Source: a virus. From it: 52,335 nucleotides of DNA. The first letter of the stretch is position 1. Each line of letters begins with the position of its first letter. Location of the stretch: the IMG/VR virus record IMGVR_UViG_3300033463_000194, positions 1-52,335 of that record; one strand, written 5' to 3'. The translations under genes and the position numbers were made by a program. The notes under the pieces are model-generated. The model was not told the DNA's origin and ran no database searches. It saw nothing but the letters and a program-made list of their open reading frames with translations. Positions 1-5,703 of this stretch are shown in pieces.

Positions 1-127
1 CCTTCATAAGTAATTTTAGGCAATTTTTCATATGTTTGTAATCTACCCCAAGAAAACATCATACTTTCAGGGTCAACAGGCTTTTGTTGGAAGTTAGTTT
101 GGAACAAATAATCTGGTATTTTACGCT
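1..127. repeat. Terminal direct repeat (assembly overlap of a circular or circularly permuted genome); identical to 52209..52335
   Basis: Base-by-base reading shows the first 127 nt equal the last 127 nt. terL reads in frame across the join. Unit genome is 52,208 bp. Confidence 0.9.
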
Positions 128-1220
128 TTTCTTCCTCAATTTCAAGGGTTGTTCTTAATTCAGGACAAGTACTTCTTCCTGTTTGATAGTCTAAAGCAGG
201 AACTCTACATATTGCTATACTTTCATCTTCATTAATATATGTATATTTATACTTATCGTGTGGCTTGAACTTATATTGAGATGTAACTTCTGTTACTAAC
301 AAACTGATAAAATCACCACTAGCCCATAAAGTACCACTTACAACGACTTTAGGTGTCTTATTTTGTACGAAACGTTTTCTCCATACAGTAGTAAACTTAT
401 TATAGTATTCTTCATTAGTTTTTTGTGACATTGCTTCTATATAAGAAGGATATAAGTCATCTATATGTATTCTTTGACTTGCTCTTACACCTACAACGTT
501 AGATTTAACTGTAGATGCTATATAACTACTACCTAGTTTACAATCTCTTAATTTCCAGTTTCCATCTGTTTCCTTAACAAAATAGTCTTTATCTTCACTA
601 GAATACTTCATATTTGGGAAAACTTCGCCAAACCATTCAGTTTTCATTTCATTTCTAACGGTACTAGAACCACCTTTTACAACATCTTCATTAGAACATA
701 AGGCTAATACTGTTCCTGTAGGGTCTATACCGAAAGCCCACGCTTCACTAATTTTTTCTGGATAAGTTTTACCATAACCAGAAGGCATCATTACAATAAG
801 CATCTTAAAATTAGGATTAGTGACTATTTCTTGTAAATAATGTACATAACCACGCATTATATCAAATCTAGGAGCAAAGAACTTATCTTCTTTTCTTTCA
901 CCCCATTCACGATATATAAAATAATGTTCCAAACTTGTTCTTGATGCTATTTTATAAGCCGTATGCAAGTATTTTTCATATTCTTCTGCATTATTTTTAT
1001 CTAATTTAAGCATTAAATCTAGTAAAGGAATATACCTTTTTAAAGCCATTTCAGAGGCTTTTACAGGTTCTTCCTTAAAATAGGCTTCAAACATTGTATT
1101 TAAGTCTGAAACCATCTCTAAAATCTTATTTAAAGGTATTCTTTTATCTTTAGGCGTATTTTTTTGTAAATTATTTTCAAATATAGTTAAATATTGGTCT
1201 ATATATTCCTTATAATTCAT
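1..1220 (-). CDS. terL: Terminase large subunit, N-terminal ATPase part (continues through the junction into 51668..52335; about 586 aa in total)
   Basis: Minus-strand ORF from ATG at 1220, open to position 1 and therefore missing from the ORF track. My translation is MNYKEYIDQYLTIF... It has a Walker A-like MPSGYGKT and a Walker B-like RIHIDDL. The frame matches 51668..52315 (1220-107 is divisible by 3). Confidence 0.9.
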   Translation of the reverse strand, partial: MNYKEYIDQYLTIFENNLQKNTPKDKRIPLNKILEMVSDLNTMFEAYFKEEPVKASEMALKRYIPLLDLMLKLDKNNAEEYEKYLHTAYKIASRTSLEHYFIYREWGERKEDKFFAPRFDIMRGYVHYLQEIVTNPNFKMLIVMMPSGYGKTYPEKISEAWAFGIDPTGTVLALCSNEDVVKGGSSTVRNEMKTEWFGEVFPNMKYSSEDKDYFVKETDGNWKLRDCKLGSSYIASTVKSNVVGVRASQRIHIDDLYPSYIEAMSQKTNEEYYNKFTTVWRKRFVQNKTPKVVVSGTLWASGDFISLLVTEVTSQYKFKPHDKYKYTYINEDESIAICRVPALDYQTGRSTCPELRTTLEIEEEKRKIPDYLFQTNFQQKPVDPESMMFSWGRLQTYEKLPKITYE

Positions 1221-2322: not shown

Positions 2323-2829
2323 ATGAATAAGGAAATATGGAAAGATATACCAAATTACGAAGGGTTGTATCAGGCATCTAATCTAGGAAATATTAGAAGT
2401 ATTTATCGATATAAGAAAATTTTAACTCCTTATATCGATAAAGATGGTTATTATAGGATTAGACTTTATAAAAATAAAAAAGGCGTTTACAAAGGCGTTC
2501 ATAAATGGATTGCAGAAGCCTTTATACCTAATCCACATAATTATAATGAGATAAATCATAAAGATGAAAATAAGCAAAACAATTGTGTTGATAATCTTGA
2601 ATGGTGTAATAATTGGTATAATATTCATTACGGCACTGCTATCGAAAGACAAACTAAAAGTAGAAGCAAAAAAATAGGAAAATATCTACTAGATGATACT
2701 CTAGTAGAAATATACGAAAGTATATCTGATGCTAGTAGAAAAAATAATATTTATACTAGTAATATAAGTAAAGTTCTTCATAAAGAACGAATTACTACAG
2801 GTGGATTTAAATGGAAATATTTAAAATAA
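2323..2829 (+). CDS. HNH homing endonuclease (NUMOD4-type N-terminus)
   Basis: IWKDIPNYEGLYQASNLGNIRS ... HKWIAEAFIPNP ... INHKDENKQNNCVDNLEWC. Paralogous to 12425..12997 and 20292..20822. Confidence 0.85.
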   Translation: MNKEIWKDIPNYEGLYQASNLGNIRSIYRYKKILTPYIDKDGYYRIRLYKNKKGVYKGVHKWIAEAFIPNPHNYNEINHKDENKQNNCVDNLEWCNNWYNIHYGTAIERQTKSRSKKIGKYLLDDTLVEIYESISDASRKNNIYTSNISKVLHKERITTGGFKWKYLK

Positions 2830-2831
2830 CT

Positions 2832-2861
2832 AAAAAAGAGAACAAATAGTTCTCTTTTTTC
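2832..2861. terminator. Bidirectional intrinsic terminator
   Basis: AAAAA-AGAGAAC-aaata-GTTCTCT-TTTTT. It has an A-run on one side and a T-run on the other, so it works on both strands. Confidence 0.8.
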
Positions 2862-3901
2862 TTATGAAGATTAATTCAAGAAACTTCTAAATGACTGACA
2901 TTTTAGAATTAAAGGAGCGATTTCACTTGAATTAACTCGAAGGAGGTGTAGTATCTGCTAATACATAATTAAATCAGATATATTAGTGCTTATTAGCACC
3001 ACCTAATAGATATACCTGTTATGATAATAACTGACCTTTTAGGACTTGTCCTTCGGGAACTTATAATCCACAGATTATTAAGTAATTCATTTTAATATAT
3101 CTACTAGGTGCTACCAATAAGTTTAACCTCGTTAGATAGCACATTTGTTTCGTATGCAAGTTAAGGATTGCAATTTCCTATAAATATCACCTATCGTGAC
3201 AGAAAGGTTATTCAAATGCTTAATTGTTACGGTACAATTAAGAAAACCTCTATAAATCTCTTACATTAAGTAAAAGACTAATTGCATATATAGTCATATA
3301 TAACTATATAAGATGCCTTTTCTACACTTGGTAGATAGGTCTAGTGCTTTCTGGCCTATGCAGGACTTATCCCCCATAGGAAGTATAGTTCGTAAACTAT
3401 ACCGGTCTTTCGTGATAAGCACCATCAAGTAATATAAAGGTTTGGTTAGTTAATTACGCTAACCCACAGCATCTCTTTCCCCTACCATTGTCCTTTAATG
3501 CTATCTACAATGAATAACCCTTACAGGTACGATTTTTATATATTACTTGATGCTACCTATTACTAGATAGCACGAATATCCCAGTAAAATTCCAAAACGG
3601 AATTTGTCCTATGAATAGGATTGGTACTTTTAGGCTATATACTCTATTTAAGGCATATAACTCTTAATAAGCACCCTAGAATAGACATTGCTTTAACCTA
3701 GTCTTTTGACAATTCTAAAGTCTTATATATCTACTCTAGGCTACCTATTACGGTAACCTTTATACTGGAGTGTTGTTAGATAAAGAGATATACCTATATT
3801 TTAAAAGAATAGTGTATCTATGAAAAAAAGATATATATTAAGGATTTTTCTTATGAATAATACTTTATTATTAGTCGGTTTGTGATATATCTCCTTTATC
3901 T
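2835..3901 (-). ncRNA. Candidate large (~1.07 kb) structured noncoding RNA with three paralogous long-helix modules; family not recognised
   Basis: No ORF of 60 codons or more in any frame. Its own promoter is at 3908-3936 and its terminator at 2832-2861. Modules: 2989-3016/3094-3121, 3412-3436/3539-3563 and 3665-3688/3727-3750. Inner helices covary, and wobble pairs are valid only in minus sense. Confidence 0.7.
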
Positions 3902-3907
3902 AATTAC

Positions 3908-3936
3908 ATACTACCACTTATTTTTATACTTGTCAA
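3908..3936 (-). promoter_or_regulatory. Near-consensus sigma-A type promoter driving the large RNA
   Basis: Minus strand: TTGACA (3936-3931), 17-nt spacer ending in TGg (3916-3914), then TAGTAT (3913-3908). It lies directly downstream of the 3942-3972 terminator. Confidence 0.65.
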
Positions 3937-3941
3937 TACAC

Positions 3942-3972
3942 AAAAAGGAAGTAGTACCTTCATACTACTTCC
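3942..3972 (-). terminator. Intrinsic terminator (minus strand)
   Basis: 10-bp stem GGAAGTAGTA/TACTACTTCC with a 6-nt loop, followed on the minus strand by TTTTT (plus-strand A-run 3942-3946). Confidence 0.8.
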
Positions 3973-4021
3973 TCGGATAATGAGAATAGTGAATAATAAC
4001 TCATACTATCTATTCGATAGC
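3942..4021 (-). ncRNA. Candidate small RNA (~80 nt)
   Basis: Strong promoter at 4028-4056, a 5' hairpin CTATC-gaata-GATAG (4006-4020), an A/U-rich single-stranded stretch, and the terminator at 3942-3972. No ORF. Confidence 0.5.
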
Positions 4022-4027
4022 AATTTC

Positions 4028-4056
4028 AATATATCATATATTTTTATTTTTTTCAA
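4028..4056 (-). promoter_or_regulatory. Sigma-A type promoter with extended -10 (for the small RNA)
   Basis: Minus strand: TTGAAA (4056-4051), 17-nt spacer ending in TGa, then TATATT (4033-4028). Confidence 0.55.
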
Positions 4057-4295
4057 ATGTATTTACTTTGACATTGAGGTAATTTTTTTATTTAAAATTA
4101 AATTTTGGGGTAACTGATACGTTTTTCATTTTCTGCTAGGGTGTGGGGTGGTGTTGATAATGTAAAGTTAAATGATGTTTACTTTTATTATTCTTACAAT
4201 ATCACAAGTAAAAAAATGTATAGTATATGTAAATAAAATAATCTGATAAAGTCTTTTTAATATTCTGTTATTAAGTAATTGTTAATAATACCCTG

Positions 4296-4680
4296 TTAAT
4301 AACAAACAAACAAAAACGATATAATAATATATATAATTAATAAAGTAGAATAGATAATATATAATATATATACTATAGTATATGCTGTATATAGTAATAT
4401 AATAGTAGTATATGCTATATAAGAGTATTTAAGTATAAAATAAGCCTTTTTATAATAGAATAGATATAAATATATCAATACAATATAAAAACGCTTAAAA
4501 AAGGTGTTTAAAACGTGTTATAAGTCTATATATTATATATATAATAGTATATAGTAGTTATTATAATAGTAGTAGTATAATAGTACTAGTATATAGATAT
4601 ATCTGTTATATGGAGTTATTAAGTATAATATAGATGTTATTTAATAAGTGATATATAAATGTATATGTATGATGTAAAAG
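4296..4680. repeat. AT-rich, C-depleted low-complexity tract (TAGTA/TATAG-type words)
   Basis: By hand count only 3 C in 4321-4440. Short repeats include AGTATATGCT twice (about 4376 and 4407) and a G(G)AGT..TTAAGTATAA unit twice (about 4421 and 4611). Confidence 0.6.
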
Positions 4681-4756
4681 TATCTAAAAAGGCCTTTTAT
4701 TCTCTTTATATAATATAATACATTTGTATGTAATACATTAGTTCGTATTTATAGAT

Positions 4757-4787
4757 ATAAAAAAAGATGTATTTTTATACATCTTTT
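4757..4787 (-). terminator. Intrinsic terminator ending the 5961->4786 operon
   Basis: AAAAGATGTAT-tttt-ATACATCTTTT overlaps the stop codon and is followed by a T-run on the minus strand. Confidence 0.75.
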
Positions 4788-4995
4788 ATATATTAATTAC
4801 GTTTGTTTTATCGTTGTATAATTTAATTATTTTAACGTGTTTCATATCTATTATATGTAATAATAAATCGGTATCATAATAACAATAATTAGCACCTATT
4901 TTGTTTATACCTTTAACGCCTAATTTTCTTTTTATTCTTTGGCCTTCGTTTGTAATTATAATTATATTGTTTACGCCTTCGTTATACCCTATCAT
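4786..4995 (-). CDS. Hypothetical protein (69 aa)
   Basis: ORF tightly coupled to 4997..5380 (1-nt gap), with a terminator right after it. Confidence 0.5.
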   Translation of the reverse strand: MIGYNEGVNNIIIITNEGQRIKRKLGVKGINKIGANYCYYDTDLLLHIIDMKHVKIIKLYNDKTNVINI

Positions 4996-4996
4996 T

Positions 4997-5380
4997 TTAA
5001 GCGCTCACCCCTTCCGCTTCTTCTTCCATTTCTTCCACTGCTTCGTTGATTGCTTCGTCTAGTTCTTGGCTCAAGATGTAGCATCTTATTGTTACATCGC
5101 ACCATTCAGCGCCTTTTTCTAATACGCTTACATCTTCGCAACAAAACTCTTTTAATGCTTCCGCTAATAAGTCCATATTGTGCGCGATTGCTTCTTCTGC
5201 CTTCCAAGCGTTGCAATAATAAGAACCGCTAGCGTTACCCGTTACGCTATCTTCAATAAATAAATTGTCGTATAAGTCGCCGTTGTCTTCTTGTAGTTCT
5301 CTTGCTTCTTCTAGTGTATAATTCTCCTTGATATATTCTTTTATATCTTCCCTTACTGCTTCGTTATAATCATATACCAT
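4997..5380 (-). CDS. Hypothetical acidic protein (127 aa); compositionally GC-rich gene
   Basis: Well-formed ORF containing DSVTGNASGSYYCNAWKAEEAIAHNMDLLAEAL. GC is clearly above the genome average (GCG/CGC codons). Confidence 0.75.
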   Translation of the reverse strand: MVYDYNEAVREDIKEYIKENYTLEEARELQEDNGDLYDNLFIEDSVTGNASGSYYCNAWKAEEAIAHNMDLLAEALKEFCCEDVSVLEKGAEWCDVTIRCYILSQELDEAINEAVEEMEEEAEGVSA

Positions 5381-5472
5381 AATAATATCACTCCTTTACT
5401 TTTCTTTTATGGCTTTTCTTTGTTTGTACCTTCATTATAATACTATTTTTTTAATATCTATAAAATTATCGT

Positions 5473-5703
5473 TTATTGATAAATACCATATATTTCTTTA
5501 TTACATACTTTTACATCGTTGTATGTTTCCATACAAGTATTATATGCTTGTTTGTCTTTATCTGTAATAGTGAAGGCTTTTAACATTAAAAAGCCTATCA
5601 CCATAATAATTAATATAAATATAATTGTAAAAATTATTTCTTCTTTTATTTCTTTTTTTCTTTTAATTTTTTGTAGTCTTCTATTCATTTCTTCAATATT
5701 CAT
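5473..5703 (-). CDS. Small membrane protein (76 aa, one TM segment)
   Basis: Basic N-terminus followed by the hydrophobic stretch IIFTIIFILIIMVIGFLML. Confidence 0.55.
   Translation of the reverse strand: MNIEEMNRRLQKIKRKKEIKEEIIFTIIFILIIMVIGFLMLKAFTITDKDKQAYNTCMETYNDVKVCNKEIYGIYQ

Follow-up and report, generated by a model that had tools for sequence, protein, structure and literature searches.

To our knowledge, ROOL and GOLLD rank with the largest RNAs of bacteria and phages for which structures have been solved, and they have no known function. The only consistent clue to their role is their nearness to tRNA genes. The early mRNAs of phage T7 and the precursors of rRNA are interspersed with RNase III sites, and terminal 3' and 5' hairpins shield bacterial RNAs from exonucleases. 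ROOL adopts one fold of ~580 nt with multistem junctions and pseudoknots (PMC5737381) and assembles into a cage, and tRNAs can be embedded in a linker of GOLLD (PMC12286853). Here we analyse a locus at positions 2832-3936 of the viral record IMGVR_UViG_3300033463_000194, of which the whole 52,335-nt stretch (the window) was examined and supplies all coordinates; the RNA lies on the minus strand. An earlier note on this DNA, made from the letters alone, had read the locus as one giant structured RNA with triplicated arms. We show that it is a self-contained minus-strand non-coding transcription unit made of a tandem array of three copies of a rod-like module, together with one possibly degenerate copy.

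The unit resembles ROOL (RF03087) in being a phage or prophage non-coding RNA (ncRNA) with its own promoter and terminator, often near tRNAs, and in its slot upstream of RusA(-)/terS/terL, which is identical in four ROOL-carrying contigs (L045, L050, L206 and L207; L-numbers are labels of comparison viral contigs or loci). It differs from ROOL in being a variable string of independent rods that gives no covariance-model match at E<=10. With GOLLD it shares the character of a large phage ncRNA tied to tRNA islands, and the linker tRNAs of GOLLD parallel the tRNAs found in module apices; unlike GOLLD, it has a modular repeat architecture, with neither an Rfam match nor the conserved 3' domain. 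The module is also reminiscent of YrlA (RF02553), with its basal rod of 5' and 3' arms, a conserved irregular helix and an apex that can be tRNA-like (as in L066), but there is no significant model match, an rsr gene was not seen among the neighbours and most apices are not tRNA-like. The conserved helix that we take to be the Ro-binding site was likewise not seen in the module arms. The RNase III sites of T7 early mRNAs and the stalks of rRNA operons offer a further likeness: RNAs made on one transcript are set apart by long conserved hairpins that contain an internal mismatch, a stalk encloses the RNA to be released, and residual hairpins stabilise the products. The phage module differs from both in its variable cargo, its bistability, its refolding partners and the retention of its sequence across unrelated phages, and its cleavage is a prediction only.

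The locus is a minus-strand transcription unit with three rod modules

The predicted whole transcript is ~1,070 nt long (2832-3901, minus strand), beginning ~7 nt past the -10 box and ending with the terminator; L001, L040, L041 and L042 have kept both of these ends. The sigma-70-type promoter (3908-3936, minus strand) consists of TTGACA at 3936-3931, a 17-nt spacer with TG and TAGTAT at 3913-3908. It scores a 10/12 match in a promoter scan, and TTGAC(A/T) and the spacing are kept in five homologous loci. At the other end, a terminator scan returned a bidirectional intrinsic terminator (2832-2860, both strands) with a 12-bp stem preceded by an A-run and followed by a T-run, which is common to the ncRNA unit and the convergent HNH/RusA genes. 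The 5' boundary of the locus is the intrinsic terminator of the upstream unit (3945-3974, minus strand; same scan), the hairpin and T-run of which are kept in L001, L040, L041 and L042 with compensatory changes. The scans thus recovered both of the boundaries, promoter and terminator, that the earlier note had proposed. Its claim that the locus has no coding capacity also stands: the largest open reading frame (ORF) in any frame of 2832-3936 has 44 codons' worth of protein (44 aa). The contrast in G+C content (GC) that it described is real (0.395 at 3301-3500), but its figure of 10-20% for the flanks holds only farther out, in the AT-rich stretch at 4200-4900 (0.16-0.19), and not in the immediate flanks (0.23-0.27).

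A motif-plus-pairing scan of the 52 kb returned exactly three modules (A, B and C), each of them on the minus strand, against 0.013 expected from 300 first-order Markov simulated windows. Two of them, A (2989-3014/3096-3121) and B (3412-3436/3539-3563), were also returned by an inverted-repeat search. Module A (2985-3142, minus strand) has rod arms at 3094-3121 and 2989-3016, a 77-nt apex and segment X1 (GUGCUAUC) at 3135-3142. Module B (3409-3576, minus strand) has rod arms at 3539-3563 and 3412-3436, an apex of ~102 nt and X1 (GUGCUAUCU) at 3565-3573, and is closed by an outer helix UUCGUG/CACGAA that pairs 3571-3576 with 3409-3414. Module C (3661-3760, minus strand) has rod arms at 3727-3750 and 3665-3688 and a 38-nt apex. 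In each module the inner helix has 12/12 pairs and the outer helix 9-10/10 pairs. The features that had been picked out by eye are all present: a G.G juxtaposition in A, B and C, an A-U to U-A swap in module A, and inner helices that are unrelated in sequence, each being self-complementary.

The rods are predicted to form on the minus strand. The minimum free energy (MFE) in the minus and plus sense was -45.9 and -34.2 kcal/mol for module A (z -5.9 and -4.2), -41.5 and -28.0 kcal/mol for module B (z -4.2 and -3.0), and -34.8 and -16.4 kcal/mol for module C (z -6.3 and -1.6); for the entire unit it was -299.6 versus -253.1 kcal/mol. The helix wobbles (4, 2 and 5 in A, B and C, respectively) are G.U in the minus sense, the sole exceptions being A.C pairs at the ends of module B. 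These figures bear out the proposal of a minus-sense fold, and the other local hairpins listed with that proposal appear in the MFE fold.

A module family in unrelated viruses

The family was collected with two 18-19-nt module-arm patterns, which matched 114 and 85 IMG/VR stretches, followed by a strict scan. The family is defined by a 5' arm that ends in ...UAGC and a 3' arm that starts with GGUG(C/U), giving a core of C-G, G.G, A-U and U.G, with an inner helix of at least 11/12 pairs directly above this core and an outer helix of ~10 pairs below it; in the set used for the covariation counts the core was fixed by selection. Modules A, B and C of the window show this core (core pairs 3110/3000, 3552/3423 and 3740/3675, the last a C-G) and these helices. 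The strict scan returned 217 modules in 142 loci, with 1-4 per locus in tandem. Variant modules also exist in which the core C-G is replaced by U-A (GUAGU...AGUGC) and the G.G mismatch is retained.

The consensus reads (G)UGCUAYCU-UUAU-AGGUAGC, then AUAGAGUAGAUAUAU ... AUAUAUCUAUUCUAU, then GGUGCUUAUAAA(G)GCACUA; in short form, (G)UGCUAYCU-UUAU-AGGUAGC is followed by a helix of 13-17 bp, an apex and GGUGCUUAUAAAGCAC. The rod is ~27-31 bp long: an outer helix, UUAUAGGUAGC / GGUGCUUAUAA, which contains the core, continues into the 13-17 bp inner helix, which bears the variable apex. Apices range from 6 to 145 nt and comprise 138 different, mostly unrelated sequences. The positions of G.U pairs in the module helices are invariant or dominant across the family.

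The module is widespread: more than 140 unrelated viral contigs carry it, alone or in short arrays, and phages whose terminases are unrelated share the same sequence. Modules are placed between late genes and on their coding strand; the neighbours are large terminase, portal, minor head, scaffold, major capsid and HNH genes, almost always on the same strand. They often directly follow a stop codon and precede a terminator, terminators being found downstream of modules in 35/136 cases compared with 20/136 in the upstream control.

Two alternative folds are both conserved

Covariation was measured in an alignment (A3) of 70 diverse modules from other phages, made gap-free by replacing the apex with GAAA. 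The earlier description of the long-helix modules as paralogous and covarying is supported. Two-sided changes occurred at 19/23 rod pairs. They filled 226 cells of the alignment versus 42.1 +/- 5.3 in shuffles, and 0/500 shuffles reached 226. The covariation score of the rod was 0.54, compared with 0.17 in shuffled alignments and at most 0.11 with slid partners. The pairs of the outer helix, which had not been selected for, also exceeded the shuffle expectation among 154 modules (k6, 142 vs 117; k7, 149 vs 133; k9, 139 vs 98). In module 2 of L207 six outer pairs have been rewritten compensatorily, and all three helices are kept in a heavily diverged sequence.

The same arms can form two other hairpins. 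On the 5' side, the upstream GUGCUAYCU pairs with AGGUAGC (hairpin a), and on the 3' side GGUGCUU pairs with the AAGCAC that follows (hairpin b). Hairpin a was paired at 7/7 positions in 89/149 modules (4.8 expected) and hairpin b at 6/6 positions in 85/149 (57%; 12.8 expected); these percent-paired figures are inflated because the module sets were chosen by pairing, which does not inflate the counts of two-sided changes. Compensatory variants are found for hairpin a (GAGUAGC/GCUACUC, AAGUAGC/GCUACUU, AUAUAGC/GCUAUAU and GGCUAGC/GCUAGUC) and variants of hairpin b include GUGUCU/AGACAC, GUGCAU/AUGCAU and GUGUAU/AUACAC. Both hairpins are mutually exclusive with the outer helix of the rod, and their loop nucleotides covary with each other, as the rod demands. 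Because the rod and the three-hairpin state both covary though they exclude each other, both are under selection. The module family is thus bistable, a property that the first reading of the locus had missed: the arms of the rod can also form two covarying flanking hairpins.

When the two states were compared by constrained folding in ViennaRNA, the rod was favoured in 119/154 natural modules, with a median margin of only 4.1 kcal/mol. In the window, each of A, B and C could form hairpin a (with X1 as the upstream partner in A and B, and GUUACC at 3752-3757 in C), and hairpin b is clear only in A, where its partner AAGCAC lies at 2987-2992; it has 3 bp in B and is absent in C. Across the family, hairpin b is fully paired in 4/16 modules that have an immediate downstream terminator versus 80/135 of the others, a depletion that fits a role of hairpin b at the 5' end of a downstream RNA.

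Module number and cargo vary among close relatives

Contigs with terminases 86-92% identical to that of the window carry the same unit in the same place. They keep the promoter, the upstream terminator, the last module, the 3' tail and the terminator; the interior is not conserved. The number of modules per unit is three in L001 and L208, four in L040 and L041, and five in L042 and L043. The terminase proteins of L040 and L041 are identical, but their last modules have entirely different inner helices and apices (L040:1059-1124 vs L041:1276-1409), with a 13-nt loop in the former and a 77-nt structured apex in the latter on identical outer arms. As judged from the sequences, this difference is a cassette exchange at the conserved arms. 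The 77-nt apex of window module A is common to module 4 of L041.

These comparisons argue against the picture of a single giant RNA with triplicated arms. Because the number of modules varies and the interiors of L040 and L041 have been swapped, a fixed three-arm tertiary design is not conserved. The unit of selection is the module rather than a 1-kb tertiary fold, as counts vary, apices are exchanged and the module occurs alone elsewhere.

Modules replace or adjoin ROOL and accompany tRNAs

In relatives with terminases 63-65% identical to that of the window, the syntenic slot holds a ROOL RNA, the order being promoter - ncRNA - terminator - RusA(-) - terS - terL. ROOL scored 151 bits in L045, 118 in L050, 146 in L206 and 190 in L207, and was found at 118-196 bits in these four and in L215, L216 and L217. 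The comparison with ROOL and GOLLD made in the earlier note was apt in one respect, namely that related phages carry ROOL in the exact slot. The terminator sequence found at window 2832-2860 also closes the unit of L207 that contains ROOL.

Modules (M) are found next to ROOL itself. One module directly follows ROOL in L045 and in L206, and L207:3350-4790 is a single unit of the form ROOL-M-M-tRNA-M. Two independent IMG/VR loci, L216:4784-5802 (L216 = L228) and L217:834-1743, are single units of the form M-M-ROOL-tRNA and ROOL-M-M, respectively. Abutting modules were thus present in 5/7 distinct ROOL loci examined (L045, L206, L207, L216/L228 and L217), with a gap of ~20-75 nt. ROOL was absent from 20 module-rich loci, which makes the module a more general element than ROOL.

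The module is tied to tRNAs as well. Module-tRNA pairs within 300 nt were on the same strand in 44 cases and on opposite strands in 0. The tRNA-CCA end abuts the base of the rod via a short U-rich spacer in at least six loci. At L121:1688-1816 and L163:646-761 the apex of a module contains a tRNA-Trp gene, with an encoded CCA in the former. At L066:8925-9043 the apex is a tRNA-like element (44.5 bits, with a 36-nt insertion), the acceptor stem of which forms the top of the module stem.

As a side observation on the slot, L046, L047 and L049 (terminase P0037, 63% identity) lack an intergenic gap beside the gene that takes the place of RusA; in L046, two gaps of ~0.9 kb without ORFs lie elsewhere, at 2832-3700 and 4640-5557.

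Relation to known RNA families

No Rfam 15 family matched the window at gathering thresholds. A search of 2700-4400 at E<=10 with relaxed filters gave no match to ROOL, GOLLD, OLE, HEARO or raiA; the matches were at chance level, the best being SraG on the terminator (23.6 bits vs a 50-bit gathering threshold). The ROOL model (RF03087, gathering 99.1 bits) left the window unmatched in the same search that finds ROOL in the relatives. ARAGORN and the Rfam tRNA model detected no cloverleaf in the window. YrlA and Y RNA models gave no match at gathering in the window or its relatives, the best score (17.4 bits vs 69-bit gathering) being that of L066, driven by the T-arm; among the top clusters of neighbour genes, which were those inspected, none was TROVE-like.

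Searches by sequence were equally unrevealing. Neither the region nor the consensus module had a blastn match among GenBank phages. Exact 16-18-mers of the 3' tail (GATACTACACCTCCTT, CAGATACTACACCTCCTT and GCTATCTAACGAGGTT) had only chance matches in viral, metagenome and genome collections, except for L001. A ROOL-derived 17-mer found nothing among viral contigs, and a ROOL-derived 16-mer found 20 loci, 4 of them with real ROOL. A covariance model (R1) built from cargo-less mini-modules of other phages with a GAAA loop gave module C 15.2 bits and missed A and B. Modules with long apices are missed because R1 treats an apex of 38-102 nt as an insertion, a limit of the model design.

The literature searched by sequence and by topic does not describe the module. 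A survey of structured RNAs in IMG/VR (Fremin et al. 2023, PMC10690425), with which the module was compared by description, reports thousands of unnamed phage motifs, some of which overlap tRNA predictions in only part of their copies and some of which lie upstream of RusA or terminase genes. The rod module may be among them.

Other parts of the transcript and the genome setting

A long hairpin without the module core occupies the 5' part of the transcript (3771-3908, minus strand; arms at ~3771-3795 and 3882-3908), as seen from inverted repeats and the MFE fold. Relatives have a variant module (GAGUAGU...AGUGCUU) at this position, and the hairpin may be a degenerate first module. A small inter-module hairpin (3155-3173, minus strand) has the stem UUGCAA/UUGCA(A) and the loop UCCUUAAC. 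Hairpins with this conserved loop recur downstream of modules in L042 (1146), L140 and L194, and the stem of the L042 copy covaries to CACAA/UUGUG.

The 3' tail (2913-2948, minus strand) contains two anti-Shine-Dalgarno-like boxes, UCGCUCCU at 2913-2920 and CACCUCCUU at 2940-2948. The first is kept in all five homologues and the second in L001; CACCUCCUU is identical to the anti-Shine-Dalgarno core at the 3' end of 16S rRNA. The boxes might mimic ribosome-binding sites or sponge Shine-Dalgarno sequences. The tail of L045 carries UUACCUCCAAG.

The window genome is that of a temperate siphovirus-like phage with a GC of ~23%. Its large terminase gene (1-1220, minus strand) adjoins terS; RusA lies at 1864-2256 and an integrase at 12998-13933. 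An I-HmuI-like homing endonuclease gene with NUMOD4, HNH_3 and NUMOD-like domains (2323-2829, plus strand) is wedged between the ncRNA terminator and RusA. It is missing there in L001, L040-L043 and L208; in L206 a NUMOD4 gene plus RecU occupy the spot, and RusA is not there. Just upstream of the ncRNA promoter in the RNA sense lies a very AT-rich block (4319-4601) of degenerate tandem repeats with periods of ~28-30 and 7, and similar blocks occupy the equivalent place at L001:150-420 and L050:7270-7640; the block could be an origin or a regulatory region. The otherwise AT-rich spacer also holds a G-rich box, GGGTGTGGGGTGGTGTTG (4139-4157), which is kept as its complement at L001:541-560 and L040:186-205. 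Farther upstream, a 127-aa ORF (4997-5380, minus strand) with no Pfam match has a GC of 40-44% against ~23% for the genome and looks recently acquired.

Discussion

We tentatively favour, at somewhat less than even confidence, the reading that the locus is a ROOL-less ncRNA island in which the modules act as insulating or processing stalks that delimit and release small structured RNAs. The island would be transcribed as one precursor, with the rod as the form made in the precursor. A double-strand-specific host endonuclease of the RNase III or Mini-III type would cut the rod, freeing the apical RNA (a tRNA, a tRNA-like element or another small structured RNA) and separating neighbouring RNAs such as ROOL, tRNAs and late mRNAs. 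The severed arms, no longer held together, would then refold into hairpins a and b, of which a would cap the 3' end of the upstream product and b the 5' end of the downstream product. Such stalks would account for the two exclusive conserved folds, the variable cargo and the placement between late genes, as well as for the abutment to ROOL and tRNA ends and the rarity of hairpin b before an immediate terminator.

Several points weigh against processing stalks. The rod is consistent with RNase III-type cleavage in its geometry (at least 27 bp with an internal mismatch) and its placement only. Processing alone leaves unexplained how little the inner helix AUAGAGUAGAUAUAU and the G.G/U.G core vary among phages whose terminases are unrelated; this constancy suggests a sequence-specific partner or else homogenisation by recombination at the arms. 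RNase P and RNase Z could free module-embedded tRNAs with no cut in a stalk, and the acceptor stem of L066, being continuous with the rod, looks more like display than release. The enrichment of terminators downstream of modules (35/136 vs 20/136) is weak, the depletion of hairpin b comes from 16 cases only, and the choice of modules by pairing inflates the percent-paired figures.

In a protein-binding or ribonucleoprotein (RNP) scaffold, similar to a Y RNA or a small-RNA sponge, the rod would be a sequence-specific site for a protein of the host or phage, the apex an effector or adaptor and the array a set of 3-5 sites. In its favour, the core and the commonest inner helix are almost invariant in sequence among unrelated phages. 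The rod and tRNA-like apex of L066 resemble the layout of YrlA, and the likeness of flanking hairpins a and b would suit a dimeric binder. We find such a scaffold possible but doubtful, as there is no conserved neighbour gene except for packaging and head genes and no Rfam Y_RNA or YrlA match (at best 17.4 bits vs 69). Many modules, moreover, have different, freely covarying inner helices, and a scaffold leaves the conservation of two exclusive folds unexplained.

It is unlikely that the locus encodes one giant ornate RNA of the GOLLD/ROOL class, with three arms that build a defined tertiary or multimeric architecture. In its favour, the unit is ~1.07 kb long and highly structured, brings a promoter and a terminator of its own and lies where related phages have ROOL, and its inter-module hairpins and 3' tail are partly conserved. 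Against it, relatives with 86-92% identical terminases have 3, 4 or 5 modules, apices are swapped or cut down to a 13-nt loop, and many other phages have the module as a single copy. Neither the MFE fold nor the homologue comparison revealed conserved pairing over long range, and no Rfam large RNA matched even at E<=10.

The modules could instead be bistable RNA carrier arms that tether or display diverse small RNAs, or hand them to the ROOL nanocage or a host RNP; we consider this improbable. The RNAs borne would be tRNAs, tRNA mimics and aptamer-like domains, and arrays of the window type would be ROOL-independent multi-arm versions.

An element that acts as DNA, with incidental RNA structure, is quite improbable. 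As DNA, the arms form palindromes (GTGCTTATAAGCAC; GCTACCTTTATAGGTAGC), the exchange of cargo between L040 and L041 falls exactly at them, copy number varies and the site is near terS/terL, so that recombination or cassette-exchange sites, single-stranded DNA (ssDNA) hairpins or protein-binding palindromes (pac/TerS or like miniature inverted-repeat transposable elements) come to mind. But the opposite strand would have A.C in place of the strand-specific G.U wobbles, which lie at fixed positions, and unrelated inner helices are kept paired by compensatory change. Modules are also co-oriented with tRNAs (44 to 0) and with genes, tRNAs are embedded in them, the unit has a dedicated promoter and terminator, and phages whose terminases are unrelated have the sequence in common. 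The repeats may well lead to recombination at the arms, but as their consequence rather than their function.

A cis-acting switch (attenuator, thermosensor or ribosome-sensing element) that toggles between the rod and the three-hairpin state to control the expression or stability of flanking late genes is highly unlikely. The four-segment architecture (1:2/3:4 vs 2:3), with both states covarying and close in energy, and the many modules that begin a few nt past a stop codon would suit it. However, hairpin b has no U-run and hence is no terminator, no Shine-Dalgarno sequence or start codon is sequestered, the unit has no ORF in the window and its relatives, and there are no conserved unpaired nucleotides resembling a ligand pocket.

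We rejected a CRISPR repeat or RNA anti-CRISPR mimic (hairpin a is only loosely similar to type I-F repeats), 5S rRNA loop-E mimicry (both look-alike strands on one arm) and self-cleaving ribozymes (no Rfam match, no unpaired conserved core). The unit size does not fit ToxI-like antitoxin repeats, and direct repeats are absent. TIGR, bridge or omega guide RNAs were dropped for want of an associated protein gene, and a retron or diversity-generating retroelement for want of a reverse transcriptase. Nor are these attC or IS200-type ssDNA hairpins, as both the matching boxes and a transposase are missing.

Whichever of its possible roles applies, the module is a rare natural RNA with two mutually exclusive folds that are both maintained by compensatory evolution. 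The locus exposes a third recurrent component of ROOL/GOLLD-tRNA islands, an abundant and strongly covarying module that replaces ROOL altogether in one phage lineage. As the module abuts ROOL and tRNA-CCA ends and can enclose tRNAs, it leads to testable predictions on the cutting and stabilising of ROOL/tRNA precursors, as envisaged for processing stalks, or on partners of ROOL. If the modules were indeed carrier arms, they would be the missing link between the ROOL/GOLLD cages and tRNA islands.

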